Sequence record: MZ501075
Direction: 5' to 3' (one strand)
DNA from: Escherichia phage IrisVonRoten
DNA: 64,000 bases
Position numbers and translations under genes: made by a program. Below, piece after piece: positions 11,794 through 42,928 of this stretch (positions within the stretch are counted from its first letter, which is position 1; each line of letters starts with the position of its first letter). The notes beneath the pieces are model-generated. The model searched no databases and had not been told where the DNA came from. It saw only the letters and a list, made by a program, of their open reading frames with translations.

Positions 11794-11829
11794 AAGTTTC
11801 CTCCAATGGGGCGTTCCACGATGAGGCTT

Positions 11830-11861: not shown

Positions 11862-11887
11862 TTTATAAACATATAGGTTGGTATAGT

Positions 11888-21929: not shown

Positions 21930-22352
21930 ATGAGTACTGAAAATAGAGTTATAGACTTAGTGATAGATGAGAAAGTACCCTATGGTCTAATGATGCAATT
22001 CTTAGATGTTGATGATAGTACTTACCCACCTACAAATACCCCTGTTAATTTAACAGGGTATTCCCTAAGGGGTACTATAAAGGCCGGGCTTGACGAGAAT
22101 GCGGAAACTTTGGCATCTTTTACTACTAAAATTATTGATGCTGCTCAAGGTGCCATAGCTATAAGTTTACCTGTAGAGGCGGTAGATAATATTGGTGAAA
22201 AAGCCACCAAAGAGAGAGATAAGTATAACCCTCGCCAACGTTTTGCAGGATACTATGATATAATTATGACACGAGATGTCATAGGATCAGCTATTAGCTC
22301 TTTTCGTATAATGGAGGGTAAAGTATTTATCAGTGATGGGGTAACTAGATAA
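21930..22352 (+). CDS. collar protein (T5 p132-like)
   Basis: 140 aa, same size and position as T5 p132 as recalled. Confidence 0.55.
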
Positions 22353-24742
22353 TGGCAATAACTACTAAGATTATTGTACAACAAATATTAAATATTGATG
22401 ATACTAAAGCTACTGCTAGTAAGTTTCCTAGATACACAGTAACTCTTGGAAATTCTATTAGCTCTATTACTGCTAATGAGTTAGTATCCTCTATAGAGGC
22501 CGCTGCTAAATCTGCTGCGGCTGCAAAAGATTCTGAAATAGCAGCTAAGACTTCAGAGCTTAATGCTAAGAACTCTGAACAGGAAGCTGCTATTTCTGCC
22601 GGAGCTTCAGAAGCTTCTGCTACTCAGTCTGCTACATCTGCTACTCAATCTGCTGCATCAGCGGATAAATCTGCAGAATCAGCCGCAGCAGCTAAAGTAT
22701 CCGAGACTAACTCGAAGACTAGTGAGGCTGATGCAAAGACTAGCGAAACTAATGCAAAAACATCAGAAACTAATGCAAAGTCTAGTGAAACCAAAGCTAA
22801 GGCCTCCGAGACTAATGCTAAGGCTAGTGAAACTAATGCTGCTGCTTCGGCTGCAGCGGCAAAACTTAGTGAGACTAACGCAAAGGTCAGTGAGACTAAT
22901 GCTGCCGCTTCTGCTGCGGATTCCAGTGGTTTTAGGAATGAGGCGGAAACATTCTCTACACAAGCTGCTACATCAGCGTCTGCTGCAAAAACCTCCGAAA
23001 CAAAGGCTAAAACTAGCGAAACTAATGCAAAAACTAGTGAGACTAAAGCCAAAGCTAGTGAGACTAACGCAGCTAGTTCCGCAACCTCAGCTAGTCAGTC
23101 AGTAACTACTATACAAGGCTTAAAATCAGATGTTGAGCAACTAAAATCAGATACTCAGGCCATTAAAAACAGTGCTGTAACAGAGACAACAGCTATAAAG
23201 GCAGATGTTGCGCAGTTAAAAACAGACACACAAGGTATTAAGAATAGTGCGGTAACAGAAACTACCGCGTTAAAAAACCAAGCTGCAACTTCCGCAACTA
23301 ATGCAGCTAGTTCTGCAACAGAAGCAGGAAAACAAGCTACTAATGCTGCCAATAGTGCTAAGACTGCCAAGACTGAGGCCGACCGTTCAAAAACTGAGGC
23401 TGATAGATCAGAAGCTGCTGCTAATTCTACCCCCGACATTCAACCTCTTCCAGATGTATGGATACCTTTCAACGACTCGCTGGACATGCTAGCAGGATTT
23501 GCACCAGGCTATAAGCAAATAACTGTAGGTGATGATGTTATTAAAATGCCATCCGATAAGGTTGTGGATTTCAAACGGGCGTCAGGTGCGACGTACATTA
23601 ATAAATCTGGCGTTTTAACCGTTGCAGAGATTAACGAGCCTAGATTTGAACGAGACGGCTTATTAATTGAGGGGCAAAGAACTAACTATCATCTTAATTC
23701 ACTTACGCCATCTAAGTGGGGAGCTACAACAAGTGTAACTATAACAGAAAGTGGTGTTGATGAGTTTGGCTTTACTTATGGACGGTTTCAAATAAAGGAC
23801 GAAAAAATTGGGACAAATACGACAATGAATATCGCTGCGATTCCAGGAGGAAGAGGTGTCGATGTTACTGGAACCGAAAAGTATGTTACAACATCATGTC
23901 GTGTAAAAAGTGATAGTGCTAATATACAATGTCGTATAAGATTTGAAAGATATGACGGGTCCGCATATTTTTATCTGGCAGATGCATATCTTAATATAAC
24001 AGATATGTCCATTAGAAAAACTGGAGAAGGGGCTGCAAGAATAACCGCCAGAGCGGAGAAAGAATCTAATGGATGGATTTATTTCGAGGTTACATATCAA
24101 TCTGAAGCTATTGATAATATGGTTGGCTCTCAGATCCAAATTGCTCCACCTGTGTCTCCTGGCACTTATTCTGGTGGAGAGTATTTACAGGTAGCTACAC
24201 CACAATTTGAAGGCGGGGCGTGCGCTTCATCGTTTATTATTACAGAAGCGACTCCAGTAACACGGGCAAGCGATATGGTCACATTACCAATAAAAAACAA
24301 CCTTTACAATTTGCCGTTTACAGTACTTGTGGAAGCTCATAAAAACTGGAGTATAACGCCAAATGCAGCGCCACGTGTTTTTGATACCAGCGGTCATCAA
24401 ACCGGAGCGGCTATTATTCTTGCTTTCGGATCTGCCGAAGGCGATAATGATGGATTCCCTTATTGCGATATAGGTAAATCAAATAGAAGGGTTTACGAGA
24501 ATGCAAAACTAAAAAAGATGATCATGGGAATGAGAGTAAAGAGTGATTACAATAATTGCTGTGTAAGTAATGCCAGAATATCAAGCGAAACAAAAACGGA
24601 ATGGAGATACATACAATCAACGGCTACTATAAGGATTGGAGGACAAACAAATACTGGAGAACGACATTTATTTGGCCATATCCGAAACTTTAGAATCTGG
24701 CATAAGGAACTAACTGATAGACAAATGAAGGAGTATGTATGA
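22352..24742 (+). CDS. L-shaped tail fibre protein, proximal part (LtfA-like)
   Basis: 796 aa; N-terminal Ala/Ser-rich region with >15 SETNAK-type heptad repeats; C-terminal region ending HLFGHIRNFRIWHKELTDRQMKEY resembles LamG/concanavalin-like lectin fold. Confidence 0.65.
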   Translation: MAITTKIIVQQILNIDDTKATASKFPRYTVTLGNSISSITANELVSSIEAAAKSAAAAKDSEIAAKTSELNAKNSEQEAAISAGASEASATQSATSATQSAASADKSAESAAAAKVSETNSKTSEADAKTSETNAKTSETNAKSSETKAKASETNAKASETNAAASAAAAKLSETNAKVSETNAAASAADSSGFRNEAETFSTQAATSASAAKTSETKAKTSETNAKTSETKAKASETNAASSATSASQSVTTIQGLKSDVEQLKSDTQAIKNSAVTETTAIKADVAQLKTDTQGIKNSAVTETTALKNQAATSATNAASSATEAGKQATNAANSAKTAKTEADRSKTEADRSEAAANSTPDIQPLPDVWIPFNDSLDMLAGFAPGYKQITVGDDVIKMPSDKVVDFKRASGATYINKSGVLTVAEINEPRFERDGLLIEGQRTNYHLNSLTPSKWGATTSVTITESGVDEFGFTYGRFQIKDEKIGTNTTMNIAAIPGGRGVDVTGTEKYVTTSCRVKSDSANIQCRIRFERYDGSAYFYLADAYLNITDMSIRKTGEGAARITARAEKESNGWIYFEVTYQSEAIDNMVGSQIQIAPPVSPGTYSGGEYLQVATPQFEGGACASSFIITEATPVTRASDMVTLPIKNNLYNLPFTVLVEAHKNWSITPNAAPRVFDTSGHQTGAAIILAFGSAEGDNDGFPYCDIGKSNRRVYENAKLKKMIMGMRVKSDYNNCCVSNARISSETKTEWRYIQSTATIRIGGQTNTGERHLFGHIRNFRIWHKELTDRQMKEYV
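22670..23090 (+). repeat. imperfect 21-bp tandem repeats (encode SETNAK heptads)
   Basis: repeated units such as agtgaaactaatgcaaaaact / agcgaaactaatgcaaaaaca visible directly in the sequence. Confidence 0.8.
23113..23285 (+). repeat. degenerate ~78-bp direct duplication inside fibre gene
   Basis: two adjacent units encoding LKSDVEQLKSDTQAIKNSAVTETTAIK / ADVAQLKTDTQGIKNSAVTETTALK. Confidence 0.7.
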
Positions 24743-25017
24743 GAGATATAATCCTAAAATTCACGGATAAATCAGCATATAAAGATTTTCTCGTTCAAAT
24801 AGGGTGGGATACTAATGAAACTTTGCAAAATCAAATAATGCTTGATGAAATTGGCTATACTTATACTGAAATCTCTCCGCTAGGAGATGAGGAGCCTAGA
24901 TGCACCCGTAATGAAGGGTATTATGTTAATGTAAGGATTCTTGATGAATCCTTTACTTACGAATACTTCGAGCCTTTTATAGTTCAGCTAGAACAGCCTC
25001 TTAGAGTATGGGCATAA
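24739..25017 (+). CDS. small hypothetical protein between fibre genes
   Basis: 92-aa ORF with ATGA overlap with LtfA-like stop. Confidence 0.3.
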   Translation: MRDIILKFTDKSAYKDFLVQIGWDTNETLQNQIMLDEIGYTYTEISPLGDEEPRCTRNEGYYVNVRILDESFTYEYFEPFIVQLEQPLRVWA

Positions 25018-25026
25018 GGTTTTATA

Positions 25027-26751
25027 ATGGTAACTAAAACAGTAATTCCTACGGATATTACAAAACTTAAAAATGAGTCACTTAATAAAAATAATAACCT
25101 GAGTGACTTAGCAGACCGTGCAGCAGCGTGGCTAAACGTGCGTCCTATTGGGTCCACCCCTCTTGCGGGGGATCCTGTTGGGGACTATGATGCCGCAACT
25201 AAACGTTGGGTAGAGAATAAGATTAACACTGGTACAGTTGGACCCACTATGAGTGGTGTTATGAACTACGGTGTTGGTGATTTTCACCTCCGAGATAGTC
25301 GTGCGTATATTCAACCATACGAAGTCGTTTCTGACGGACAGCTTCTTAATAGGGCTGACTGGCCTGAACTTTGGGCGTATGCACAAATGGTTGGGGCTAT
25401 AGATGATTCAGTTTGGTTAGGAGATAAATTCCAGCGCGGTAAGTACTCATCAGGGAATGGAACAACAACCTTTCGTGTTCCAGATAGAAATGGTGTGCAG
25501 TCTGGTTCAGTATATGGTCTATTTGCTCGTGGTGATGGTGGTCAAAGTAGTATTAATGGAGCAATTTATGAATCTGGTGCACCTAATATAGTTTTTACTT
25601 CTCCGCATACTATGGTAACGCTTGCTTCAGCAGCTGGCCAAGTTGCAACAATTGGAGCGTTACAATCAACCACGTCAAGTGATGCTCCGGCACCAGTAGG
25701 TTCTGGTGGTAGGTACATTAATACAAATTTTGATGCGTCAAGATGTAGTTCTATATACGGGAGAACGGTATCCGAACTACGCCCTAATAACTTCATTGGC
25801 GTCTGGGTAATCCGTGCTTCTGGTGGGTTCGTGGCTGCAAAGACTTCGTGGAGTGTTATTAGTGGTGATGCTGTCAAACCTAATACTGGTACTACTGTTT
25901 ATGGCGGGAGTGTACTATCTGAGTATAAAGTAGGTACTAGTAGTGAGGCTGTAAGTACACTACGAGCTAAAGCTACTATTGGTGGCACCTACTCTACTGA
26001 ACTACTAATAGACAATAAATCTACCGGTAAATCGAATTCCGCCCAGCTTGTAGATAATGGAGATTTTGTAACGGATCGTTTTAAAGCTAGATTAGTTACT
26101 GGCATGGCGTGGTCTCAGACTGGCTGGGTACAAGGTACTCTTTCTCAGAACGAGGTCAATATAGGTAGTACATTTAACTTTAATAGTATATTGAGCGGTT
26201 CCCAGTCTTCTTCCGCAGGGTATAAGACATCTGCACATTTTGGATTAATTCATAATGACTTAGGCTCATTTGCAGATTCTTGTTGGCAGGTAGCGGGAGA
26301 TGATGATAATAAATTTGGTGTGCGTTTAAAAATTCAGCCGAATAATAATAGTATTTATTTTTATTCTTGGTGGCCCGGTGCTTCAGCAACCTATACTTTG
26401 CAATTAAATGCTGTATCTGATTCTCGCTTAAAGCATGATATTAAGGCTATAGACGCAACTAAGTCCATCGAGGTATTAAAAGGATTAGAATTCCAATCCT
26501 TTGTATATAATAACGATGAAAAATCTCGTGTCCGACGTGGGGTTATTGCTCAGCAAGTAGAGACTATAGAACCACTTTATGTAAAAACTAGAAGATTTTA
26601 TAATGATGACGGAATAGAGCAGGAGCAAAAGGAATTAGATACAACTCCAATGCTTCTTGACACTATGCATGTTGTGCAAGATCTTATTAAACGGATTGAA
26701 GATCTGGAGAAAGAGCTTGAGCAATTAAAGGTACAATTAGTATCACAATAA
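25027..26751 (+). CDS. distal tail fibre protein (LtfB-like) with tail-collar-type domain and C-terminal intramolecular chaperone
   Basis: 574 aa; PELWAYAQMVG..TTFRVPDRNG resembles phage tail collar domain; C-terminal SRLKHDIKAID..LEFQSFVYNNDE..RRGVIAQQVE resembles S74-type self-cleaving chaperone of fibre/endosialidase proteins. Confidence 0.65.
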   Translation: MVTKTVIPTDITKLKNESLNKNNNLSDLADRAAAWLNVRPIGSTPLAGDPVGDYDAATKRWVENKINTGTVGPTMSGVMNYGVGDFHLRDSRAYIQPYEVVSDGQLLNRADWPELWAYAQMVGAIDDSVWLGDKFQRGKYSSGNGTTTFRVPDRNGVQSGSVYGLFARGDGGQSSINGAIYESGAPNIVFTSPHTMVTLASAAGQVATIGALQSTTSSDAPAPVGSGGRYINTNFDASRCSSIYGRTVSELRPNNFIGVWVIRASGGFVAAKTSWSVISGDAVKPNTGTTVYGGSVLSEYKVGTSSEAVSTLRAKATIGGTYSTELLIDNKSTGKSNSAQLVDNGDFVTDRFKARLVTGMAWSQTGWVQGTLSQNEVNIGSTFNFNSILSGSQSSSAGYKTSAHFGLIHNDLGSFADSCWQVAGDDDNKFGVRLKIQPNNNSIYFYSWWPGASATYTLQLNAVSDSRLKHDIKAIDATKSIEVLKGLEFQSFVYNNDEKSRVRRGVIAQQVETIEPLYVKTRRFYNDDGIEQEQKELDTTPMLLDTMHVVQDLIKRIEDLEKELEQLKVQLVSQ

Positions 26752-26756
26752 AAGAA

Positions 26757-26790
26757 AACCCCAGTGGACAAAATCCACTGGGGTTTATTA
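26757..26790. terminator. bidirectional rho-independent terminator between convergent late (+) and early (-) modules
   Basis: CCCCAGTGGA-CAAAA-TCCACTGGGG with T-rich tract on + and A-rich (T-rich on -) tract upstream. Confidence 0.7.
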
Positions 26791-26807
26791 TTTATTTTAT
26801 ATGTAGA

Positions 26808-27254
26808 TTATTTACTTCCTGAACTTCCAAATCCGCCTTCCCCACGTACAGTCTCTTCTAACTCATCAACGATTTCAAAATTATGGGTTGAGTAGTGTGG
26901 TAGTACTACTAGCTGACAAAGTCTCTCGAAATTCTCCAGAGTTTGCATTTCAGAACCGTAATTATAGAGGTTCATCTTAATAGTACCACGATAGTCTGAG
27001 TCAATCACCCCTGCGGTATTTGCAATCATCAGATGACGCTTACCCAAAGAGCTGCGAGGAACCACCAAACCTAACCAACCCCGCGGAATTTCTACCGCGA
27101 CACCGGTGTCAATCATTAGGGACTTGCCTGGTGCAATAGCGCGTAAATCCGCTGCAGGGTTAGTACCAAAGAATGCCCGCAGATCCATACCTGCGGCATC
27201 TTCGGAACCAATCTTAGGCATACAATCTGGATGAGTTAATTTAATTTTAATCAT
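26808..27254 (-). CDS. dut: dUTPase
   Basis: 148 aa; motifs RSSLGKRHLMIANTAGVIDSDYRG and C-terminal RGEGGFGSSG typical of trimeric dUTPases. Confidence 0.85.
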   Translation of the reverse strand: MIKIKLTHPDCMPKIGSEDAAGMDLRAFFGTNPAADLRAIAPGKSLMIDTGVAVEIPRGWLGLVVPRSSLGKRHLMIANTAGVIDSDYRGTIKMNLYNYGSEMQTLENFERLCQLVVLPHYSTHNFEIVDELEETVRGEGGFGSSGSK

Positions 27255-28126
27255 TGTCCTGCAATCTCCAAAATATCTTTTGTAAACTTATCTAATACGT
27301 CTGGACCTACAGCAGCAATAGCATCTACACAGTAGGTAGGTAAATCAACCAGAATTAGGTTTCGGTAAAGCAATTCTTCCGAAGCATTTAAATTCTGTAT
27401 ATATTTCTGTTTTCCAGGTAGTGGAAGCTGATCAATAATATCCAGAACGTTACCAAATTCACGAATAATGTTATACCCGCGTTTTGCTCCAATTCCTTCA
27501 ACACCACGGATATTATCCCCTAAATCACCCATAATTGCTTTTAGAGAGATAAACTGCTCAACATCATCAACATTATGATGTTCATACATATCACGAAGAT
27601 GATACTCACGACGTGTAGTGAAGGAGAAACGAGAAACTTTATCAGTAAGTAGGGTGTCCCAGTCACCATCAGTAGATATTAGCCAAACATGGTCATATAA
27701 GTGACCAATTAGTTTAACAATATAAGCCGCCATATCATCTGCTTCTACGCCACGAATGGTAAAGGTTGGGAATGTGGTTTCACATAACTCGAAAGCATCA
27801 CGCAGGTACTCGAAGAACTGCTCATCTAGTGCTTTCTCCTCTTCCGTACGCTGAGAGTATTTCTCATCTCGATTCCCCTTATACTCAGGGAGATGCTCTA
27901 AGCGGAATGCGGACTTCCCTTTATCCCCTAAAACTATTGTAGTTCTAGCAGAATAAGATTTTGCTAGAGACTGAATAGTGGAAACATAACTTGAGGCAAA
28001 TGGTTTTTTACTGTTGTTATGTTTGAAGCGAAAGCCTAAGTTAGTTCCATCGACAATCATTAGGTTACGACGGGAAGCCATTTCAGCTTCCTCTTCTTCA
28101 ATAAATTTTCCCCAGGATTTACTCAT
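27251..28126 (-). CDS. flap endonuclease / 5'-3' exonuclease (T5 D15-like)
   Basis: 291 aa, same length as T5 D15 as recalled; 5'-nuclease-type motifs (IVDGTNL.., GDKGKSAFR, ISTDGDWDTLL, GVEGIGAKRG). Confidence 0.85.
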   Translation of the reverse strand: MSKSWGKFIEEEEAEMASRRNLMIVDGTNLGFRFKHNNSKKPFASSYVSTIQSLAKSYSARTTIVLGDKGKSAFRLEHLPEYKGNRDEKYSQRTEEEKALDEQFFEYLRDAFELCETTFPTFTIRGVEADDMAAYIVKLIGHLYDHVWLISTDGDWDTLLTDKVSRFSFTTRREYHLRDMYEHHNVDDVEQFISLKAIMGDLGDNIRGVEGIGAKRGYNIIREFGNVLDIIDQLPLPGKQKYIQNLNASEELLYRNLILVDLPTYCVDAIAAVGPDVLDKFTKDILEIAGQ

Positions 28127-28608
28127 TATTTAATTAAGTCCTCAACAGATGCATTATGTAGCCACGGCTCAAATAAACCGATTACGATTTCCATGCCTTT
28201 CTTATTTAACACCATATGGGTACGACTCATTAAGTTGTCAACCATCGGGTCTGAGCTATCCAAAGCTATTAACCACTGTCCTCTGTCTTTTTTGAATATT
28301 AATGCAGGTTTGGAGTTCATCTGCTCACCTTCACGTGAGCACTGCTGCCACCACTTCTCTAGAGTGGATTCACCAACATTAAATAAATTACTTGATATAT
28401 TATCATCTTTATACCACTTAACTTCGAAGCAGTATTTACTAATGTGTCCGCTTTGTGGGGGAAGGTAGATATCACCCTTTAGTCCATGACTCTGACCAAA
28501 AGCACCAGAGCCTGGAACACGTTCCCACTCAAGACCTGTACGTTCACGTAGTATATCTCTTACCTGATACTCACCACGTTTGCCTTTCTCTCTACTATCT
28601 ACGGCCAT
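28126..28608 (-). CDS. putative Holliday-junction resolvase, Hjc/PD-(D/E)xK-like
   Basis: 160 aa; KGKRGEYQVRDILRERTGLEWERVPGSGAFG..KGDIYL..CFEVKWYKD fits Hjc-type G-x-ER..SG..D-I..EVK pattern. Confidence 0.45.
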   Translation of the reverse strand: MAVDSREKGKRGEYQVRDILRERTGLEWERVPGSGAFGQSHGLKGDIYLPPQSGHISKYCFEVKWYKDDNISSNLFNVGESTLEKWWQQCSREGEQMNSKPALIFKKDRGQWLIALDSSDPMVDNLMSRTHMVLNKKGMEIVIGLFEPWLHNASVEDLIK

Positions 28609-28612
28609 GTTT

Positions 28613-30451
28613 TTATTCTAAGTAGGAAAATCCTTCTGCATCTTTTTTGACAGTAATCTTATGGGCTAATGGATGCGTATGCCCATGTGAAACAATGATA
28701 GAGTTAAGACTATCTTCCTTGTTTAACAATTCAACTAGAGTATCAAGTCCTTTCGTATCGATAAAGCTAATTACTTCATCAAGGAATAGAAGATTAATAT
28801 TAACTTTACTAATAGATGTTAACAGCATACGAATCGCTAACAATGTTGCTAGATTGATTCGACTTTGCTGACCAGTAGAGCAGTTCTCCATACTGGTACG
28901 ATTCCCATCATTGAAGATTACTACTTGTAATTTTGTTTCATCAAGTTCAAATCCAAGTGCGAATTTACCGCCAGTCATAATAGAAAGATATTTATTAATT
29001 AGCTCTTCAAATACTTTCACACTATGCTCTAGTTTATACCCCACCAGATTTTTCAATGCAGCAATTAGAATATCGAGATCAGCAACAGCTTCTGATACTT
29101 CATCCAGTTTGGAAGTAATTTCAGTCATTTCTGCTTCTGCTTTCTCAATCTGTTCTAGCTTTGCTTTATATTTTGCATTGGCTAATTCGACATTTGCATT
29201 ATGCTCTTTGGCAATTGCAACCTTAGAACGGCCATCAGCGATTTCCTGTTCTAATTGTCGGATTTGCACCTGTAGGATTTGCACATTGAGTTCTTCAAAA
29301 GAAGCATCACCCATTGAATTTTTGAACTCGTCTCTAGCTACCACCGCTTTATCCAAAGCATCCTTTGCTCTAGTATACACAACGTACTCAAGTTGTTCTT
29401 TCTTCAACTGTTCTAGCTTAGCTTCAAGAGATTGCTTCTCTTTGAACAGAGGATCATATTCTATTCTAGCCATATCCATTGCTTTTTGAGCAGCAGTTGT
29501 ATCCAGGTGAGTACCACAAGTAGGGCATTCAGTGTTTGAAGCCTCTTGCTTGAACTTCTGATAACGTTTCTTGACTTCACCTGCACGTGAGGTCACAATC
29601 GTTAGGTCACGCGTAACACTTGAGATCTCTTCATTTTGGTCGGTGGGCGCGGGAAGATTTTTATATGATTCGAAAGATTGTTCGGCAACTTGTACAGCTT
29701 TGTCCAAATTACGCAACTTAGTAATATTAGCCTCTTGAGACTTGGCTAATGCCGCCTTAATTTTCGATTCAGTAAGTTCTTGTGCTAATGGTTCTTCATC
29801 AAACTCCGGTACTTCTACAGGTTCCTGCAAAGTTCCTAGATTATTTCTTCCATTAAGGATTTTTGTAATTACAGCCATTTGGCCCTGCAAATTATTTAAG
29901 GTATTTGCTATTTCTTTACGGTCAGCCTTAATAGTTTCCGACATTTCTTTGTATTGTTCTTGATTGAACAAATTAACAAGAAAAGCCTTACGTGTTGCAT
30001 CCGTTGCTTTTAGAAAATCTAGGTTGGAACCCACTGATTGATAAATCAGTTTGGTGAATGTTTGAAAGTCACCACCCATAATCTCTTCAATCATCTTATA
30101 TGTTTGGGTTGCTGTATGCCCACTAATATCTTCGCCATTCTTAATGAGTGTAACTTTAGCAGTTGATTTAACTACTTTATGCAGCTCATACTCATCATCA
30201 TCTTTCGAGAAATAAGCGTGCATATCATACTCTTTCTTAGGGGCATTCCAAGAGAACAATGCATCCTTTTTAATACCGCGAGAATTTTTATTATAGAATA
30301 GCTCTTCTATAACCGTGGCGATAGTGGATTTCCCTAGTCCATTGCCACCAATTAGTTGAGTAACTGGATTCTTATCGAAATGAATTACGATGTCCTTACC
30401 GTAAGACATAACGTTACTAAATTTTAGTGTCTTAATTGTAATCTTTGACAT
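28613..30451 (-). CDS. SbcC/Rad50-like recombination ATPase (T5 D13-like)
   Basis: Walker A GGNGLGKST near N-terminus, long coiled-coil middle, C-terminal signature/Walker B region (LLFLDEVISFID); likely ATG at 30451 (track ORF extends to 30553). Confidence 0.75.
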   Translation of the reverse strand: MSKITIKTLKFSNVMSYGKDIVIHFDKNPVTQLIGGNGLGKSTIATVIEELFYNKNSRGIKKDALFSWNAPKKEYDMHAYFSKDDDEYELHKVVKSTAKVTLIKNGEDISGHTATQTYKMIEEIMGGDFQTFTKLIYQSVGSNLDFLKATDATRKAFLVNLFNQEQYKEMSETIKADRKEIANTLNNLQGQMAVITKILNGRNNLGTLQEPVEVPEFDEEPLAQELTESKIKAALAKSQEANITKLRNLDKAVQVAEQSFESYKNLPAPTDQNEEISSVTRDLTIVTSRAGEVKKRYQKFKQEASNTECPTCGTHLDTTAAQKAMDMARIEYDPLFKEKQSLEAKLEQLKKEQLEYVVYTRAKDALDKAVVARDEFKNSMGDASFEELNVQILQVQIRQLEQEIADGRSKVAIAKEHNANVELANAKYKAKLEQIEKAEAEMTEITSKLDEVSEAVADLDILIAALKNLVGYKLEHSVKVFEELINKYLSIMTGGKFALGFELDETKLQVVIFNDGNRTSMENCSTGQQSRINLATLLAIRMLLTSISKVNINLLFLDEVISFIDTKGLDTLVELLNKEDSLNSIIVSHGHTHPLAHKITVKKDAEGFSYLE

Positions 30452-31409
30452 ATTTCGCAGCTCTAGCCAAGATTCTATCAATGTCGCCTTGAGATAGCTT
30501 CTCGACTTCACGGAAGTAAAGTTCAAGTTCGCCCAACATATCAAGATCAACAAGATTTAACTTAGCATCTTTAGTAACTCGATGGTTAATCTTCTTATCT
30601 AGTAAATCAGAGTCTTTAATAGACTTTAATTGAACAACGTCACCAGTAACTTCGTAGACTACACGATCATAATCACTAGGTTCCATCTCTTCACCTGCTC
30701 CGATTGTTTTACGAATCAGTTGTGGTAAATCACCTAGTTCAATCCATTCTACTTTTAATGTGTTGGTATCAATGATAAAGCAACCATTTGTACCTTTTGT
30801 GCGTTCTCTATGGAACGATGTAGTTAATGGAGACCCTGGGTAGAGGAGTCTAGTAGGTCCGATAGTTTGGCTATTAGTATAAGAATGTAAATCACCAGCA
30901 ATTACAGTATCATAACAGTTGTACTTAGTTAGATCAATTTCTGGTTTTACATGTGGAGGGATTTCACCACGAATATGCGTGAAACATAGTTTTGATTCAG
31001 CAGGTTTCCACTTGGGTTTATGAATCTCATCATACGGAACAATATCAAATTCAGGGGAACGATATGGTTTGGTAATTACTTCCCACTTCCCACTAGTTAC
31101 TTTATTAATAACTCCCGCATAATGGTACAGACATGAAATGGTTTTAGTTAACATTTCATGATTTCCAGTAAAGATTTTGCCTGGATGGTCAAGTCTTGAC
31201 ATGAACTGTTCAAGCAGTTCTATTTCTTCTGACGACGGGTCGGCAACATCAAGTATATCACCACCAGCAATATGAAGATCACAGTTATGATTATGGAATA
31301 TATCATTTAACCGTTCTCCTAGCATCAGGAAGCGACGCTTCTGCCATTCCTTTGGAACTTTATCTTGTCCTAGTTTGATATGATGATCAGCACTAAATAA
31401 TATTCTCAT
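30432..31409 (-). CDS. SbcD/Mre11-like nuclease (T5 D12-like)
   Basis: 325 aa; calcineurin-like phosphoesterase motifs MRILFSADHH, GDILD, GNHE. Confidence 0.75.
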   Translation of the reverse strand: MRILFSADHHIKLGQDKVPKEWQKRRFLMLGERLNDIFHNHNCDLHIAGGDILDVADPSSEEIELLEQFMSRLDHPGKIFTGNHEMLTKTISCLYHYAGVINKVTSGKWEVITKPYRSPEFDIVPYDEIHKPKWKPAESKLCFTHIRGEIPPHVKPEIDLTKYNCYDTVIAGDLHSYTNSQTIGPTRLLYPGSPLTTSFHRERTKGTNGCFIIDTNTLKVEWIELGDLPQLIRKTIGAGEEMEPSDYDRVVYEVTGDVVQLKSIKDSDLLDKKINHRVTKDAKLNLVDLDMLGELELYFREVEKLSQGDIDRILARAAKYVKDYN

Positions 31410-31415
31410 TGGTTA

Positions 31416-31442
31416 AAAAGAAAGGGGCCGAAGCCCCTCTAT
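31416..31442 (-). terminator. rho-independent terminator (minus strand)
   Basis: minus-sense AGGGGC-TTCG-GCCCCT followed by TTCTTTTT. Confidence 0.6.
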
Positions 31443-31445
31443 TTA

Positions 31446-32219
31446 TTAGTCATCCAGATCGCTTGCAGCTTCGTGGTCAATACCTTTCTGGGAACCAGCA
31501 TTGCTGTTACCAGATTTGGCATCATCATCTTTATTCTCACGACCTTCCATGAAGGCTTGAATTGCTTCTTTCTGCTCTTCATAGGTAGGAACCGGATAGG
31601 TTTGTTCCAGAGAAGGAACTTTCTCAAACTTAATGATGTCGCCATCTTCATCACACATAGCTTCACCAATCAGATCTACATCCGCAGCATATTGCTTAGA
31701 TTCTGCACTGTTAGGATCTTGTAGCTTAATCTGGAACTGCATAGCAGCAATCTGCTGTACATCATACTCAGTATCGAAACCTTTGCCTTTTTTCTCGATA
31801 GAAATATCAATATCAAACGGAGTTGCCAGGTTCAACTGCTTCATGATAGACTGGATGCCTTTCAGAATAGTAGCTTTGACTTCCATTACTTTCAGTTTGT
31901 TATCGGAACGGTCGATAACAAAAGCGATATAGTTTTTCTTCGGTTTCAGCGGAACACGATTGCCATCTTTATCCAGCTCTTTCTCAAAGAAGCCCATCTC
32001 ATGAACCGGATCAGCTTTACCACGAACAAAGCTCTCTTTGTCGCGGTTAAAACGGAGACATTCGAAAGGAGCTACGCTACCTTCTTTATTAGTCAGCCAA
32101 TAGACATAACGTGGAAGAACACCAGAAACGATACGAACACGAGTGATACCGTTGTTGAACTTCAGGAATTCGATTTTATCGTTAGAACCGCCAGTAGTTT
32201 CGCCCCAAGACTTAGCCAT
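31446..32219 (-). CDS. hypothetical protein with acidic C-terminal tail (possible ssDNA-binding/recombination accessory protein)
   Basis: 257 aa; optimal codon bias suggesting high expression; C-terminus rich in D/E (..EAASDLDD); adjacent to SbcCD-like genes. Confidence 0.3.
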   Translation of the reverse strand: MAKSWGETTGGSNDKIEFLKFNNGITRVRIVSGVLPRYVYWLTNKEGSVAPFECLRFNRDKESFVRGKADPVHEMGFFEKELDKDGNRVPLKPKKNYIAFVIDRSDNKLKVMEVKATILKGIQSIMKQLNLATPFDIDISIEKKGKGFDTEYDVQQIAAMQFQIKLQDPNSAESKQYAADVDLIGEAMCDEDGDIIKFEKVPSLEQTYPVPTYEEQKEAIQAFMEGRENKDDDAKSGNSNAGSQKGIDHEAASDLDD

Positions 32220-32496
32220 ATTTTATTTCCTCTTTAAAGATTAATTTCGATTTGTTAATTGCGATTAGTGGGTTAGTGTCGATTACTAAACGTGGTATCC
32301 ATACTGGAACATATTGTATGTCCAAACTAGGATCGTTTGTAAACTTGTATTCGGCATAATTTCGTAGACTTAAAATTCCTAGATATTCTGCCAGTTGTCT
32401 ATTAGACAATTTATTTGGATTATCAACTATTGTTGATTCATTCAAAATGAATGAGGAACCGACCAATAATTGGTGAGCATCAGGCTCTGTAAGCAT
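32212..32496 (-). CDS. hypothetical protein
   Basis: 94-aa ORF; weak RBS. Confidence 0.25.
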   Translation of the reverse strand: MLTEPDAHQLLVGSSFILNESTIVDNPNKLSNRQLAEYLGILSLRNYAEYKFTNDPSLDIQYVPVWIPRLVIDTNPLIAINKSKLIFKEEIKYG

Positions 32497-32603
32497 TCTT
32501 TTGAATAACTTAATAATTAGGTCGGAATTTCCTCTAGCTAGTAAGTATAGCTTTTCATAATCGAAGAATTTAATTTTTGTTTTCTCCTCGAATTTATGTA
32601 TAT

Positions 32604-32633
32604 ATTATACTAGATTTCGAGAGAATTTAGCAA
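32604..32633 (-). promoter_or_regulatory. T5 early-type promoter (copy 1 of tandem pair)
   Basis: minus-sense TTGCTA-N18-TATAAT followed by ATATACATAAATTCGAGGAGAAA. Confidence 0.5.
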
Positions 32634-32704
32634 CTAAAATTTTTATTTTTCTGCTTCGGACTTTCTTATCAATCCGAAACTTTCTCTCTCAAATTTATGT
32701 ATAT

Positions 32705-32733
32705 ATTATACATCATTTATAAGCTGTTGCCAA
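32705..32733 (-). promoter_or_regulatory. T5 early-type promoter (copy 2 of tandem pair)
   Basis: minus-sense TTGGCA-N17-TATAAT followed by ATATACATAAATTTGAGAGAGAAAG; overlaps 3' end of helicase gene. Confidence 0.4.
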
Positions 32734-34069
32734 ATGCAATTTTAGCTAATTGAACTGCTTTCTCCGGAGTCATAGTAATAGTTTTCCATCCGTTGTTACG
32801 ATATACTGCCATACGTCCAGAAGCCTGTCTTAGTCCAGTGCCACCTTTCATAATTAGATCTACAACAATAGGGTCGAGTTTACCCTCGACAATACGTTGA
32901 ACACGGCCTGCAAGCTGTTCAATGAGAGATTCATTATTAATGAGGCTTCCCATTATTAAACAAGATAGCTCATTAAGGGAAATACCTTCAGAGAAGATAC
33001 TTTGAGCTGCTGCAAGTACACAAGGGGCACCTTTTGCTATATCTTTCTGAATTTTTAACCGATCATCAAGTGGGGTTGCGCCAATAATCTCATAGGTTGT
33101 GACGCCTCGCTGAGATAGTGCTTCTAGTACTGTTTGGATTAACTCTGTTCTATCACTTACAATGAGTACTTTATGTCCCATATTCACATATAAATGTGCT
33201 AGGTTTATAATAGTCTCTCGATATTCAGGATGATTATACACATCGTTAGCACGTAATGCCCACGGTACGTTTTGGTTTCCTGATAGCTCAACAGGCACGG
33301 AGTACCTATGGATTGTAGGTGCAACAGTATTATTAACCGGCGGGCTAAATATCTTATATCCAAAGAAATCTTTGAACATAACTTGCAAGCCATCCTTCCG
33401 TTTTAATGTTCCAGATAGTCCGATCTTATAGCGAGCACAGGATATTTCTAGGAAGTTAGTGAAAGTTGTAGCTACACAATGGTGAACTTCATCAACTATA
33501 ACAGTACCGAATACTTTAGAAAGATTATTCGCATGTTTATTCACTGTTTGAATATTACTGACTACAATTGGTGGATCAATATTATATTTCCCAGAACCTA
33601 TGATACCTGGTTCAAACCCAAACCATTTACGAACTTCTGCCGCCCACATTTCACGAATAGATGTGTTGGTACAAATTACCAAAGTTTTTTGGCCAAATTT
33701 ATACGCAAGTGCAAGGGCTAGGATAGTTTTACCAAATCCAGGCTTACCATTAATAATACAGGTATCATCGCATTCTTCGTATATTGGGAGCTGATCTTCT
33801 TCACGCAGTTTGAACTTAGGTTTTGGTATATCTACAGGAGCTAATGTGCGTTTATCGACTAATTCGTATTTTACTCCTTTAGCATCTAGTAAATCCAGAC
33901 GCGTGATAGGAATCCACTTAATCTCTTTAGCAACAACACCACTATTCTTATACATAATAGGGTATTTACTAGTCATTGTCTCAATGTGATAAGTGGTTTG
34001 CTTACTACAATAATCCCAAAGTTCATCATCGGGCTTGAAATAGGCTTTATTAGATATAACAACCTTCAT
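32717..34069 (-). CDS. SF2 DNA helicase (T5 D10-like)
   Basis: 450 aa (same as T5 D10 as recalled); Walker A GKPGFGKT, DEVHH box, C-terminal helicase domain. Confidence 0.75.
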   Translation of the reverse strand: MKVVISNKAYFKPDDELWDYCSKQTTYHIETMTSKYPIMYKNSGVVAKEIKWIPITRLDLLDAKGVKYELVDKRTLAPVDIPKPKFKLREEDQLPIYEECDDTCIINGKPGFGKTILALALAYKFGQKTLVICTNTSIREMWAAEVRKWFGFEPGIIGSGKYNIDPPIVVSNIQTVNKHANNLSKVFGTVIVDEVHHCVATTFTNFLEISCARYKIGLSGTLKRKDGLQVMFKDFFGYKIFSPPVNNTVAPTIHRYSVPVELSGNQNVPWALRANDVYNHPEYRETIINLAHLYVNMGHKVLIVSDRTELIQTVLEALSQRGVTTYEIIGATPLDDRLKIQKDIAKGAPCVLAAAQSIFSEGISLNELSCLIMGSLINNESLIEQLAGRVQRIVEGKLDPIVVDLIMKGGTGLRQASGRMAVYRNNGWKTITMTPEKAVQLAKIAFGNSL

Positions 34070-37184: not shown

Positions 37185-37214
37185 ATTATACCAAATCTTT
37201 AAGCGATTCAGCAA
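37185..37214 (-). promoter_or_regulatory. T5 early-type promoter upstream of DNA polymerase gene
   Basis: minus-sense TTGCTG-N18-TATAAT, overlapping 3' end of primase gene. Confidence 0.45.
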
Positions 37215-38076
37215 CTAAAATTTCAATACGTTTTGCTAACATATCAATCTCTTCTTTATTTAAGTCCCCAGGGTCTTTACCTTCAGGCAGAAGAAAGTTA
37301 GCAACTACAGGTGTTAAACGCGTTTTTGTACGAATTAGCTTGGCCAGTGCTTGTGCAGCTTTATTACCAGAAGCATCATTATCTAGTAAGATAACAACAA
37401 CTTTTACACCGGCAATAATATAAGGACTGAACTTATCTGCAATGTTATCTGAAGTAAACTGATGTGTACCAAAGCAGCAGGAAGCATAGTCTATACCATT
37501 ATCCTCTAGGTTCAGCATATCAAAGATACCTTCAACTAGAATAAGAACTGGAGTATTATATCGTACAGGAAAAATTGGTGGTGAAACTTGTTTTGGTTTT
37601 ACTAAGTATTTAGGAGGGGCAGAACTGTTTATAGAACGACCCAAAAATAGGATATTGCGTCCAACAGCATCTGTGATTGGGAATACAATTCTGCCTTCCC
37701 AGTCTGCTTGGTGTTGGAAAGCAAAATATTTCTTCAAGGTCTTAGAACTTATACCCCGGAAATCACCTTCGAAAAGGTAAGCAGATTCAGGGATTGCAAG
37801 ATTCGTTGATCCATTCCTAATCTCTGAAATCTTTTTACGTACTTGCGATAGCCTTGGGGACTGTCGGTACTGAGTCTCATTAAAATAATGGTAAATGCTC
37901 GGTATACCTTTACCGAAGCCACAACTCAAGCAGTGCATAATACCTGTTTCAGGGTCAATACGCAAACTTGGGTGTTTATCGTCATGATCTGGATTGAGAC
38001 AACAGATGAGGATGTCCCCACCTGTGTCCTTATATTCAATGCCTTTCAGATCAAGTAGTTCTGTTATTCTACTCAT
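37186..38076 (-). CDS. DNA primase (zinc-finger + TOPRIM)
   Basis: 296 aa; N-terminal CCLNPDHDDKHPS..CLSCG zinc finger; TOPRIM-like VEGIFD and DNDASG motifs. Confidence 0.7.
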   Translation of the reverse strand: MSRITELLDLKGIEYKDTGGDILICCLNPDHDDKHPSLRIDPETGIMHCLSCGFGKGIPSIYHYFNETQYRQSPRLSQVRKKISEIRNGSTNLAIPESAYLFEGDFRGISSKTLKKYFAFQHQADWEGRIVFPITDAVGRNILFLGRSINSSAPPKYLVKPKQVSPPIFPVRYNTPVLILVEGIFDMLNLEDNGIDYASCCFGTHQFTSDNIADKFSPYIIAGVKVVVILLDNDASGNKAAQALAKLIRTKTRLTPVVANFLLPEGKDPGDLNKEEIDMLAKRIEILVAESLKDLV

Positions 38077-39596
38077 ATATCGCTGGCCTGTTCACCTGTT
38101 GAATTTTCAGCTTTGTCTTTCTTAGCACGTTTAGATTGAGCCGGCTTATCCTTCTCAATAGGGATAACGAACTCAGCTTCCATTTGAGATATATCTTCCA
38201 TTGCTAGGTTGGTAGTGTTATCCATCCGCAGGGTTTCCCAGTTCATTTTAGGCATAAACTTCACGCTATCAGAAGAACGGGTCTTAACGAAGTCAAACAT
38301 AATAGCACCTTGACCATTATCAGCTTTTGCAGCATTAAGATTAGCAGCCATGTCTGCGGAATCAAGAATCCCCTTTGACATACGTGTTCTACCATCTTGA
38401 TCAATCTGGTAAGGAGCTACACCAGCCACGTTATGCTTCTGGCAGATGGATTTGAAAGACGAGCTAACAACCATCTGTTCTTTCCAGTCGTACATATCAA
38501 TGGTTTTAGAATCTGGAAGTCGGGTTTGGTTAATATAGTCAAGTAAAGCTACTGTAACTTTATCCCCATATCTAGCAACTAATTTATTTAATTCTACGTC
38601 AACTGTTGTAATAGACAGCTCAGGGTCATAAACAATAATCATAGGAGTATGTAGTTCATACCCTTCTATTAGCTTACTTTCCATATCGTAGAAATCACTC
38701 ATCTTAGCCATTGTGTACTGTTTAACGAAGTTATCGAAAAGCTCTTCACCACCGTTAAACATCCTAGCTCTAGTTCTGGCTAATCTCAACAGAGCTGCAC
38801 CTTCTAGAGTATTATTACGCATTGCTAGTGCTGATACACCAGCTAACATGGCTAGATTACGTCTAAATACTTCATGTTCTTTCATCTCAATTGAGAAGTA
38901 TGGAGCAATATCCCCATTCAAATATTGCTGAACCTGTATGTTTGAACAGATAATGGATTTACCAGTACCACGCCAACCACCAAGCAGTAACGTTTCTGTG
39001 CGAGCTAAACCAATTTGAGCGTCGAACTCATTACAAATACCAAGAGCGATTAAGTTCAGTTTGGTATCTTCTTCTCTCTGGAAAATACGCATGTTATCTG
39101 CGTTGAATACTTTTCCAGTATTCGTTACTTTCTCTTCTAATTTTAAGTGAAGGGAGGCAACTCGGTTAAGAATTTCTCCCTGATCCAGCATTGTTAAATC
39201 TTGAAGCACGTCTGTTTCTAGAAGCTTCAGGAATAAATCCTGTGTATACTCGGCCTCTAGGACTTCAAGTGCCTGTTCCATGCTAACTTCTGGAATTTGA
39301 GTGTTAGCTAAAACGACTAGAGCTTGAGAAAGGCGGGCGTTCCTATTAGCCTCAAGCATCAGTGCGTCAATGGACGGCATTGTGTTATATTTTTTATAAT
39401 AATTCTGGACGGCTTGGTAAATTGAGGAGAAAGCGTCACTAAAATGATCTTTATGCAGTTTTGAGAATGTTTCCAATGCTATTTGCTTCTGTTCGGAAGC
39501 TAGAAGCATCTTCAACACTACAGCTTGCACGTTAAACAAGGTCATTCTCCTTTGCACGCTTTCGTGCCTTCTAAATGCAAAAAGGGGAAGGAGCAT
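38073..39596 (-). CDS. replicative DNA helicase, DnaB-like
   Basis: Walker A GGWRGTGKS, RecA-like C-terminal domain; start uncertain (alternative ATG at 39545). Confidence 0.65.
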   Translation of the reverse strand: MLLPLFAFRRHESVQRRMTLFNVQAVVLKMLLASEQKQIALETFSKLHKDHFSDAFSSIYQAVQNYYKKYNTMPSIDALMLEANRNARLSQALVVLANTQIPEVSMEQALEVLEAEYTQDLFLKLLETDVLQDLTMLDQGEILNRVASLHLKLEEKVTNTGKVFNADNMRIFQREEDTKLNLIALGICNEFDAQIGLARTETLLLGGWRGTGKSIICSNIQVQQYLNGDIAPYFSIEMKEHEVFRRNLAMLAGVSALAMRNNTLEGAALLRLARTRARMFNGGEELFDNFVKQYTMAKMSDFYDMESKLIEGYELHTPMIIVYDPELSITTVDVELNKLVARYGDKVTVALLDYINQTRLPDSKTIDMYDWKEQMVVSSSFKSICQKHNVAGVAPYQIDQDGRTRMSKGILDSADMAANLNAAKADNGQGAIMFDFVKTRSSDSVKFMPKMNWETLRMDNTTNLAMEDISQMEAEFVIPIEKDKPAQSKRAKKDKAENSTGEQASDI

Positions 39597-39627: not shown

Positions 39628-40395
39628 TTATTCAGCAGCCGCAGCTTTTGCATCCAGTTTAGCACGCTTAGCGGCACCATCATAGTCCTTAGCAACCAGA
39701 CCACGACGAGACAGCATAGATTTAACACCGCGCTCAGACTTACCAGTTTTCTCAGCGATCTCAGCAACAGTCATGTTAGCCAGATCCAGACCTTCTAAAA
39801 GATCTTCACGAGTTTTAGCACTTGAAGTTTCCTGTACCGGCATAGCAGCGATACGACCTTCACGAAGCAGACTCAGAGCTTTACCACGGATCTGCTTGAT
39901 ATTACGACCGAAGTGAGCAGCGATAGCTTCAATAGTAGCTCCAGCAACAACCTGATTAACAAAGTCAGTTTCTTCATCCGGAGTGAAGGAACGAACAGCA
40001 GCAGCTTTTTCGGTCGGCTTAACAGATGCGGTCATTTCCAGACTCAAGATTTTACCCTGTACCTGCTTAGCACCGAACTGACCACCAGCTACAGCAGCAG
40101 CGATTTCAGCATAAGTATACTGACCAGCATGAGCGTTCAGGAAATCAACCAGTTCAGCTTCCTGCTCAGGAGTCCATGGGGATTTCTGTACTTCGTTAGC
40201 TTTCTGTACTTCGAAACCTTCTTTACGCAGCTTAGAGCCAACAGAGCGAGCGGTAACGTCTTTGCCAGTTTCAGCAGCCAGTTCAGCAGCGATAGCAGCT
40301 ACTTGTTCTTGAGAGATTACAGCAACACCCAGAGCAGTGGCTTTTGCTTTCAGAGACTCGGTTACACCTTCTACGTTCCAGTTCAGTTTAGACAT
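39628..40395 (-). CDS. DNA-binding protein with three HTH-like repeats (T5 D5-like)
   Basis: 255 aa; three repeats of pattern E-IAxxxG..........LxxxGL; strongly optimal codon usage. Confidence 0.45.
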   Translation of the reverse strand: MSKLNWNVEGVTESLKAKATALGVAVISQEQVAAIAAELAAETGKDVTARSVGSKLRKEGFEVQKANEVQKSPWTPEQEAELVDFLNAHAGQYTYAEIAAAVAGGQFGAKQVQGKILSLEMTASVKPTEKAAAVRSFTPDEETDFVNQVVAGATIEAIAAHFGRNIKQIRGKALSLLREGRIAAMPVQETSSAKTREDLLEGLDLANMTVAEIAEKTGKSERGVKSMLSRRGLVAKDYDGAAKRAKLDAKAAAAE

Positions 40396-41167: not shown

Positions 41168-41197
41168 CAAATTTCTTCCTTATCAATTTATATAAAT

Positions 41198-42619: not shown

Positions 42620-42928
42620 CTAGGCATTCTTGGCTTTGAGTTCTTCAGCTCGTTTCTGTACTTCATGTAAAACCTCAGATTCGCTAAGAATCTGTGTAAA
42701 CGCATAGAAAAGCTGTGATGTTGTTTCTAGGGTGTAAGGAAAAGAGAAGCCAGATTTCGTTGGAAACCATTCATCATTAATATCAAGAAGCCAGTAACGA
42801 ATACCCATGTATAGATTCCCACGAAATTCAGATACTGTTAATCTTACTTGTTCCCCCTCCTTCTCCCAAAGTATGATGGACTGGTCATCAACGTGTCCTT
42901 CATAGTTTTGATTTACCTGTTCGCTCAT
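42620..42928 (-). CDS. PC4-like ssDNA-binding protein
   Basis: 102 aa; IILWEKEGEQVRLTVSEFRGNLYMGIRYW fits the PC4/YdbC fold pattern; a PC4-like protein has been described in T5 (recalled, not verified here). Confidence 0.45.
   Translation of the reverse strand: MSEQVNQNYEGHVDDQSIILWEKEGEQVRLTVSEFRGNLYMGIRYWLLDINDEWFPTKSGFSFPYTLETTSQLFYAFTQILSESEVLHEVQKRAEELKAKNA

Follow-up and report, generated by a model that had tools for sequence, protein, structure and literature searches.

A window of 64,000 nucleotides from Escherichia phage IrisVonRoten (MZ501075) was analysed, in which positions 26808-31409 carry, on the minus strand, the DNA replication and repair genes dut-D15-D14-D13-D12 of a T5-like phage (Table 1). 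All five consecutive minus-strand genes named in the original prediction, an earlier reading of this DNA, were found, and its assignments of a dUTPase, a flap endonuclease and an SbcC/SbcD-like pair held against family models, the matches of the block proteins lying far above chance level. The 4.6-kb block shares 95% DNA identity with phages Bf23 and T5, and the five products are 97.6-98.8% identical to their T5 counterparts, which places the source in Tequintavirus. Gene set, order, strand, overlaps and flanking terminators are identical to those of T5 (NC_005859, T5.131-T5.127) with strain-level differences only, and the same block occurs in Bf23, DaisyDussoix and about 430 other Tequintavirus and Epseptimavirus records. 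Judged from its sequence, the block corresponds to the early operon dut-D15-D14-D13-D12 of a T5-like phage (Tequintavirus), a known and unremarkable gene cluster that is the T5 replication/repair operon of the textbooks.

The genes are closely packed, with overlaps of 4 nt between dut and D15, 1 nt between D15 and D14 and 20 nt between D13 and D12, and a gap of 4 nt between D14 and D13. A bidirectional terminator separates dut from a convergent tail-fibre gene on the plus strand and closes the operon at its 3' end; the T5 record annotates an 'efficient bidirectional' terminator in the matching intergenic region downstream of dut. At the upstream edge of the block, between D11 and D12, lies a terminator-like hairpin that matches a putative terminator annotated in T5. 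The overlapping and abutting frames, together with the terminators on both flanks, indicate a single predicted transcription unit.

Table 1 Features of the dut-D12 block and of related replication genes in the window
Feature	Position	Strand	Length	Assignment	Details
Terminator	26756..26786	both		bidirectional rho-independent terminator	13-14 bp G+C-rich stem, then T run
dut	26808..27254	-	148 aa	dUTPase	PF00692 1e-25; 98.0% identical to T5 Dut
D15	27251..28126	-	291 aa	flap endonuclease / 5'-3' exonuclease	PF02739 and PF01367; 97.6% identical to T5 D15
D14	28126..28608	-	160 aa	Hjc-like PD-(D/E)xK nuclease, putative junction-resolving/debranching enzyme
D14 catalytic core	28417..28572	-			translation EYQVRD...GDIYL...FEVK
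D14 K64 codon	28417-28419	-
D14 E62 codon	28423-28425	-
D14 D46 codon	28471-28473	-
D14 E13 codon	28570-28572	-
D13	28613..30451	-	612 aa	SbcC/Rad50-like ATPase	phrog_77 9e-134; 97.9% identical to T5 D13
D12	30432..31409	-	325 aa	SbcD/Mre11-like phosphoesterase	phrog_100 5e-62; Metallophos 1.6e-6; 98.2% identical to T5 D12
Hairpin	31421..31440	-		terminator-like hairpin	8-bp stem, 5 G-C pairs, then T run
D11	31446..32219	-	257 aa	single-strand DNA-binding protein	phrog_1607 5.5e-106; 99.2% identical to T5 D11
D10	32717..34069	-	450 aa	SF2 helicase / branch-migration enzyme	ResIII and Helicase_C; 98.4% identical to T5 D10
PC4-like gene	42620..42928	-	102 aa	PC4-like ssDNA-binding protein	PC4 (PF02229) 8.1e-8, 32.1 bits (cutoff 25)

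Dut scored 168 bits with TIGR00576 (cutoff 102.55) and 124.9 bits with NF001862 (cutoff 103), and on passing the curated cutoff it is classed as a dUTPase of the trimeric Dut family. D15 matches the sequences of PDB entries 1ut5 and 1exn, crystal structures of the T5 exonuclease (E 8.4e-193 over 291/291 residues to 1ut5), and is a T5-type FEN with predicted N-terminal PIN-like and C-terminal helix-hairpin-helix (H3TH) domains. The mechanically called reading frame of D13, 28613-30553, opens at a TTG; comparison with T5 puts the true start at the ATG at 30451, giving 612 residues. In this numbering D13 carries a Walker A motif (GGNGLGKS, 35), a hook-like CPTC (309), the signature STGQ (525), a Walker B motif (LLFLDE, 554) and VSH (587), and it matches AAA_15, SMC_N and SbcC_Walker_B in Pfam. 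D12 contains the motifs DHH (8), GDILD (50), GNHE (82), GDLH (172) and GSP (192). The adjacent genes therefore have the features of SbcCD/Mre11-Rad50: phosphoesterase motifs in D12 and, in D13, the Walker A, signature and Walker B motifs together with a hook-like CxxC. The NCBIfam sbcc and sbcd matches fall below the equivalog cutoffs (for D12, TIGR00619 sbcd at 5.6e-10), so these are divergent phage versions.

D14 matches PF24608 (PDDEXK_15, phage putative PD-(D/E)xK endonuclease) over its full length, with residues 4-160 covering all 164 profile positions (1-164; E 1.4e-47; 162.1 bits, cutoff 27), as did 42/42 diverse relatives. Across these relatives, which are 22-59% identical, K8, G9, E13, R30, S34, G35, D46, E62 and K64 are invariant. 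E13, D46, E62 and K64 are likewise invariant in the close T5-like set, in which H41, K85, Q89, R92, E93, K107, D108 and W112 are also fixed. Besides the tetrad the core contains R30 and a P32-G-S-G35 loop. The T5 protein differs from that of IrisVonRoten at two non-motif positions, with D for G138 and H for N152. The Pfam Hjc model PF01870 gave no match to D14 even at E up to 10 and matched one of the 42 relatives weakly (E 0.0088); D14 is therefore assigned to a sister family within the same superfamily, PF24608, and not to PF01870 itself.

An AlphaFold model of D14 (pLDDT 87.2, pTM 0.84) was compared with known structures using Foldseek. The best 17 PDB matches were all archaeal Hjc, headed by 2wcw (E 4.5e-4, probability 1.00), and the model shows a restriction-endonuclease-like core of the PD-(D/E)xK type, to which Hjc/Hje structures come nearest; RecU was nearest to D14 neither as a structure nor as a family. 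Alignment of the D14 family profile with hhalign to Pyrococcus (Pfu) Hjc, whose sequence was confirmed to be identical to PDB 1gef, gave a probability of 89.9% (E 1.7e-6, 84 columns) and placed E13/D46/E62/K64 on Hjc E9/D33/E46/K48 and R30 on R25. The D14 residues aligned with the dimer-interface phenylalanines of Hjc have no obvious conservation. Four independent lines, namely family match, invariant tetrad, profile alignment and model fold, bear out the Hjc-like PD-(D/E)xK call of the original prediction. The same tetrad makes it extremely improbable that D14 is a tRNA-type RNA endonuclease or a catalytically inert DNA-binding protein. The invariant acidic and lysine residues correspond to the DNA-nuclease metal site of Hjc, which to our knowledge tRNA-splicing endonucleases lack; all four are strictly conserved, against an inert protein; and D14 is surrounded by DNA replication and repair genes, not by a tRNA cluster.

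With archaeal Hjc/Hje (PF01870; PDB 1gef, 2wcw, 1hh1, 1ob8) D14 shares only 17-22% sequence identity. It is mesophilic and encoded by a bacterial phage, is about 20-40 residues longer, and has a longer beta1-beta2 loop and insertions in its C-terminal half. A search of its profile against the PDB gave as top match the N-terminus of Hjc_15-6 (PDB 7bgs/7bnx), at a non-significant E of 0.29. Hjc_15-6, from the Thermus thermophilus phage Tth15-6, carries an E-xD-EVK signature and cuts X-shaped DNA but not linear duplex (PMC8805305). Like D14, it is phage-encoded, archaeal-type and roughly 160 residues long, and the N-termini closely resemble each other (SKDKGRRYENE...RVPLSGALG in Hjc_15-6, SREKGKRGEYQ...RVPGSGAFG in D14). 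The two share the E-xD-EVK signature, and in both the catalytic Asp is preceded by a disordered loop; the loop is disordered in the Hjc_15-6 crystal, and its D14 counterpart, residues 35-39, has low confidence in the model.

RefSeq and PHROGs label D14 a RusA-like resolvase, a name that phrog_244 bears and that NC_005859 and numerous further phage records have taken over. We give this reading almost no credence, since it is refuted by both fold and sequence tests: RusA has the wrong fold and is absent from the structural matches, Pfam PF05866 was not matched, and hhalign against the verified E. coli RusA sequence gave a probability of 0.4%. The widely spread "RusA-like Holliday junction resolvase" thus names the wrong family for an Hjc-type PD-(D/E)xK nuclease.

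The PD-(D/E)xK fold is common to restriction enzymes, nickases, repair nucleases and tRNA-splicing endonucleases, and with so many kinds of enzyme the substrate of D14 is not set by fold alone. Because nicking endonucleases are among them, D14 might be the site-specific nickase that makes the single-strand interruptions of T5 DNA at PuGCGC-type sites. The T5 nicking enzyme carries no assignment in the records examined, and a major nick site, consensus GGCGCGGG, lies at 29646-29653 inside the neighbouring D13. We nevertheless regard this as very unlikely. For the nicking genes, sciA and sciB, a position in the late region is reported (PMC3517423), whereas D14 belongs to the early replication operon, and two paralogous late-region endonuclease genes fit better. 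The best structural matches of D14 are, moreover, structure-specific rather than sequence-specific enzymes. Myophages of Staphylococcus, Bacillus and Enterococcus also commonly encode D14 homologues, and are not known to have T5-type nicks.

The surroundings of D14 link it with replication and recombination genes. Both further genes in the earlier account, a D10-like helicase and a PC4-like protein, were located (Table 1). The T5 orthologue of D10 is a demonstrated branch-migration enzyme, which in vitro both unwinds Holliday junctions and drives their branch migration (PMC5180179), and D10 is the likely functional partner of D14. D11 lies outside the flagged span and forms part of the context of the cluster. 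The T5 RefSeq record, taken as a whole, annotates no further candidate for a junction resolvase, leaving D14 as the only evident one in T5, near a demonstrated branch-migration helicase. In Vibrio, Klebsiella and Providencia relatives (46-74% identity) the order FEN-D14-D13 is conserved. D14-type proteins (PF24608) form about 1,700 clusters at 50% identity, in Demerecviridae and Herelleviridae. The Herelleviridae homologues (26-29% identity over about 80% of D14 by tblastn), among them the PF24608-type ORF064/orf121 of Staphylococcus Kayvirus and QEG04191 of Bacillus phage BC-T25, are annotated 'putative resolvase', a label for which we found no characterisation of these proteins. Within the replication module, an SbcD/SbcC-like pair lies about 2.5-4 kb upstream of them, a primase is likewise upstream, and nucleotide-metabolism genes adjoin them. 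Unlike D14 they are about 190-200 aa long, with an extra C-terminal extension, and have no adjacent flap endonuclease.

This arrangement also bears on a different substrate. D14 could be a structure-specific nuclease of the same fold whose real substrates are other branched or damaged intermediates, for example flaps, D-loops, nicked junctions and forks that have stalled or regressed; it might assist the SbcCD-like D12/D13 complex instead of resolving Holliday junctions symmetrically in the canonical way. Its gene lies immediately between those for the flap endonuclease and the SbcC-like protein, in frames that overlap or abut, the D14 family keeps company with SbcD/SbcC even in the unrelated Herelleviridae, PF24608 is separate from Hjc, and the further residues invariant among T5-like phages have no described Hjc counterpart. 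Against this, the nearest structural and profile relatives of D14 are all bona fide junction resolvases, and the proposal overlaps with junction resolution itself, as resolvases commonly cut forks and Y-structures too; we therefore hold it to be possible, if unlikely. A bolder proposal, which we consider rather doubtful, is that PF24608 does not simply duplicate Hjc but is a distinct, very widespread phage clade, its conserved linkage to SbcD/SbcC reflecting a dedicated partnership, perhaps with a specificity that differs from symmetric junction resolution. Branches or hairpins cut by the D14-type nuclease could, for instance, be passed on to the Mre11/Rad50-like machine of the phage, and such a role, if true, could explain the invariance of the additional T5-like residues.

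On balance, we favour D14 as an Hjc-type, metal-dependent PD-(D/E)xK endonuclease and the putative junction-resolving or debranching enzyme of the T5-like operon, with a probability of roughly 0.6. E13 in the first helix, D46 in strand 2 and E62-V-K64 in strand 3 would form its Mg2+ site, and contacts with DNA would be made by R30, the N-terminal segment K8-G9 and the flexible P-G-S-G loop. The analogy with Hjc and with its counterpart in Thermus phage Tth15-6 makes a dimer the most likely active form; it would recognise branched DNA, four-way junctions included, by structure and part the duplexes through paired nicks. In the infected cell D14 would clear the branches left in T5 concatemers by recombination and replication-fork processing. 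Its partners would be the branch-migration helicase D10, the SbcCD-like end- and hairpin-processing nuclease D12/D13, the flap endonuclease D15, the PC4-like protein and the SSB D11. In principle, though, the phage could rely on E. coli RuvC, which would make a dedicated resolvase dispensable.

The block genes are not new, and public records already label D14 as a putative endonuclease or junction resolvase; in the searchable literature we found no biochemical or genetic data on D14 and no junction-cleavage assay. The discovery value is accordingly small, the modest gain being a cleaner fold assignment for T5 gene D14. Cleavage of junctions by D14 would bear on a long-standing gap in what is described of T5 DNA metabolism, and its family also occurs among therapeutic myophages of Staphylococcus, Enterococcus and Bacillus. 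The analogues of its proposed role are T4 endonuclease VII (gp49), T7 endonuclease I (gp3), E. coli RuvC and RusA, and Bacillus RecU. D14 would be to T5 what endonuclease VII is to T4 and endonuclease I to T7, an enzyme that removes four-way and branched DNA either ahead of packaging or while it proceeds, together with a branch-migration helicase, UvsW in T4 and D10 in T5.

The interval 26808-31409 corresponds to dut-D15-D14-D13-D12, the early operon known classically from T5. The ORF map and family matches recovered the five consecutive minus-strand ORFs of the original prediction exactly as described, and its dUTPase, flap endonuclease and SbcC/SbcD-like pair are all borne out by the matches tabulated here. 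Neighbouring genes overlap or abut (from dut to D12: a 4-nt overlap, a 1-nt overlap, a 4-nt gap and a 20-nt overlap). The mechanical ORF for D13 begins at TTG 30553, and comparison with T5 places the true start at ATG 30451. Motifs of the SbcCD-like pair are legible in both D13 (GGNGLGKS 35, central CPTC 309, STGQ 525, LLFLDE 554) and D12 (DHH 8, GDILD 50, GNHE 82, GDLH 172, GSP 192).

Features of the recombination/repair block and associated genes in the window
Feature	Coordinates	Strand	Description
Late-region endonuclease	1971-2645	+	phrog_681; treble-clef zinc finger and CapR homology domain; also T5orf172/MUG113 GIY-YIG-like domain
Late-region endonuclease	11828-12640	+	phrog_681; treble-clef zinc finger and CapR homology domain; paralogue of 1971-2645
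Terminator	26756-26786		Bidirectional, 14-bp stem; block boundary
dut	26808-27254	-	148 aa; dUTPase PF00692 1e-25; TIGR00576 168 bits against cutoff 102.55
D15	27251-28126	-	291 aa; both 5'-3' exonuclease domains; T5 flap endonuclease 1ut5/1exn E 8.4e-193, whole length
D14	28126-28608	-	160 aa; Pfam PF24608 "phage putative PDDEXK endonuclease" 1.4e-47, end to end
D13	28613-30451	-	612 aa; phrog_77 SbcC-like 9e-134; SMC/AAA/SbcC Walker B domains
D12	30432-31409	-	325 aa; phrog_100 SbcD-like 5e-62; Metallophos
Terminator	31421-31440		Hairpin; block boundary
PC4-like protein	42620-42928		Pfam scan

The 4.6-kb block shares ~95% identity with Bf23, DaisyDussoix and T5 and is carried by >430 T5-like phage records. 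Dut, D15, D14, D13 and D12 are 98.0, 97.6, 98.8, 97.9 and 98.2% identical to their T5 counterparts; the neighbouring single-stranded DNA-binding protein D11 reaches 99.2%, and D10, in agreement with the predicted D10-like helicase, 98.4%. Gene order, overlaps and terminators are those of the T5 RefSeq annotation, and together with these identities they place the window in Tequintavirus; across its structural half, identity to known members of the genus is 93-95%. The genes are already known from T5, and a resolvase annotation of D14 pre-exists, under a misleading family name.

Other parts of the window can be compared with T5 in the same way. The lateral tail-fibre region (22352-26751, +) holds a 796-aa ORF, with a long Ala/Ser/Thr-rich repeat (...KTSETNAK...), and a 574-aa ORF, with a 92-aa ORF between them; this is unlike the single 1396-aa ltf gene of T5 and resembles the LtfA/LtfB arrangement that has been discussed for other T5-like phages. 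The NAD-dependent DNA ligase is divided between 41370-42344 (-) and 40388-41170 (-), with adenylation and OB domains in one gene and HhH/SAM-like and BRCT domains in the other, the same split as T5 ligA/ligB. At 37186-39596 (-), a 296-aa ORF with the length and position of the T5 primase is followed directly by a 507-aa ORF located where T5 has D6 (a putative DnaB-like helicase), whereas T5 carries the HNH endonuclease gene hegJ between the two; the mobile hegJ insertion therefore appears to be missing from this phage. A different HNH_3 gene lies at 45061-45591. Among database records, the 1723-bp OR847760.1, deposited as 'Listeria phage LM 4-11-1', encodes a D14 100% identical to that of the window, and hits to the T5-like structural region include 12 'Listeria' records in all; such records probably hold T5-like sequence that was mislabelled or entered as a contaminant.

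A scan of 26400-32800 found 16 sigma-70-like matches, below the shuffle mean of 19.9. Only 4 of the 16 lie inside the D12-dut block on the minus strand, all of them weak (9/12), while the two strong matches (10-11/12) fall at 32604-32733, in the area around the D10 start that carries P31A/P31B in the T5 annotation. The scarcity and weakness of the matches within the block suggest that it has no strong promoter and probably depends on read-through of the D11/D12 hairpin for its transcription.

D14 had been called an Hjc-like PD-(D/E)xK protein, after the archaeal Holliday junction resolvase, from a short motif pattern. We found residues K8, G9, E13, R30, S34, G35, D46, E62 and K64 to be invariant both among 36 relatives of 45-82% identity and among 42 relatives reaching down to 22%, giving the family pattern [K]-G-x3-E ... 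R-x-P-x-S-G ... G-D ... E-V-K. The set of 42 was taken from an exhaustive HMM search yielding ~1,700 clusters. Counts from the search of the representative library with the D14 profile should be read with caution, since its matches include P0144 (1605 aa), which is unrelated to D14: its E of 2.4e-30 comes from summed weak matches over 28 stretches, and with ~28 near-identical 53-residue tandem repeats it looks like an assembly artefact.

Aligned with hhalign to Pyrococcus furiosus Hjc (a sequence identical to PDB 1gef), the diverse family profile gave a probability of 89.9% (E 1.7e-6, 84 columns), whereas a narrow alignment of T5-like sequences gave only 19.6%; the match is convincing only with the diverse set. 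E13/D46/E62/K64 of D14 pair with E9/D33/E46/K48 of Hjc, and R30 with R25. These catalytic residues form the same three-part E-xD-EVK signature as has been described for archaeal and phage Hjc enzymes, including that of phage Tth15-6 (PMC8805305). A search of PDB sequences with D14 alone returned nothing significant, the best match being a tyrosine phosphatase (E 0.47); Hjc_15-6 of phage Tth15-6 (PDB 7bgs) stood at E 1.1. With the family profile the N-terminus of Hjc_15-6 (SKDKGRRYENE...RVPLSGALG) became the nearest PDB sequence neighbour, at E 0.29, also non-significant. Fold matches in BFVD were phage proteins like the putative resolvases of Herelleviridae, and neither Pfam (at E up to 10) nor NCBIfam returned a second family. 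Four independent lines, including conservation, profile alignment and nearest PDB neighbour, make D14 Hjc-like, and the lack of structural similarity to Hjc/RecU-type nucleases that would have counted against the call was not seen. We put the probability that D14 is an Hjc-type PD-(D/E)xK nuclease at about 0.9. The invariant metal-site tetrad and the genomic context conflict with D14 being an RNA-endonuclease or an inert protein.

The name 'RusA-like Holliday junction resolvase' (phrog_244) has spread to D14 in the RefSeq record of T5 and in numerous further phage genomes. This is refuted at the family level: D14 has no Pfam RusA match, and hhalign detected no relationship to E. coli RusA, the diverse family profile aligning to that sequence (verified as PDB 1q8r) with a probability of 0.4% as a negative control. 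Other names also occur among the relatives, one being 'tRNA endonuclease-like' and another locus 'holin'. Our literature searches found no published characterisation of T5 D14 ("D14" matched mostly Asp14 or day 14), and the practical gain here is a corrected fold assignment.

T5-type nicking would be a different role for D14. The sequence GGCGCGGG at 29646-29653 (+), inside D13, fits the T5 major-nick consensus R/GCGCRGG and occupies the equivalent of the position at which T5 D13 is annotated with a 'major DNA single-chain interruption'. Only one other match occurs in the window (17268-17275) and two are expected by chance, so the evidence for the D13 site is its positional correspondence. That D14 is the nicking enzyme is unlikely. 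Its family is abundant in Herelleviridae, which are not known to carry T5-type nicks. The window also encodes two paralogous late-region endonucleases, which correspond to T5.154 and T5.141 and adjoin the terminase large subunit gene and the upstream side of the tape-measure gene, respectively. The genes for T5 nicking, sciA and sciB, are reported to map in the late region (PMC3517423, a secondary citation); on that account the nickase reading of D14 is largely rejected and the two phrog_681 paralogues are natural candidates for the nickase.

Relatives from Klebsiella, Providencia and Vibrio, with D14 identities of 74-46%, keep the order FEN-D14-D13. More telling are the homologues in Herelleviridae, 26-29% identical and named "putative resolvase" or "Holliday junction resolvase" in their records (Staphylococcus Kayvirus and Bacillus Tsarbombavirus are examples). 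They too belong to the replication module, with an SbcD/SbcC-like pair and primase ~2.5-4 kb upstream of them and ribonucleotide reductase genes immediately downstream. The full T5 RefSeq record annotates no other junction resolvase, its nucleases being HNH homing endonucleases, FEN, the SbcCD-like pair, RNase H, an exonuclease and the two late-region endonucleases. The PC4-like protein expected further along is indeed encoded; PDB sequence searches did not find it in D11, a 94-aa ORF or a 165-aa ORF. The T5 D10 helicase catalyses Holliday junction branch migration in vitro (PMC5180179).

We consider it reasonably probable that D14 is a junction resolvase or debranching enzyme; that it has a wider or another specificity for branched DNA, perhaps linked to D12/D13, seems rather unlikely. 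What the computational analysis shows, in support of the resolvase interpretation, is the fold of D14, its active site and its genomic association; substrate, oligomeric state and role in vivo we infer, the most economical reading being a Mg2+-dependent structure-specific endonuclease, probably a dimer. Such an enzyme would resolve or debranch four-way and similar structures in T5 concatemers during their replication, with D10 driving branch migration, D12/D13 processing ends and hairpins, and D15 removing flaps, a role that would be analogous to those of T4 endonuclease VII and T7 endonuclease I.
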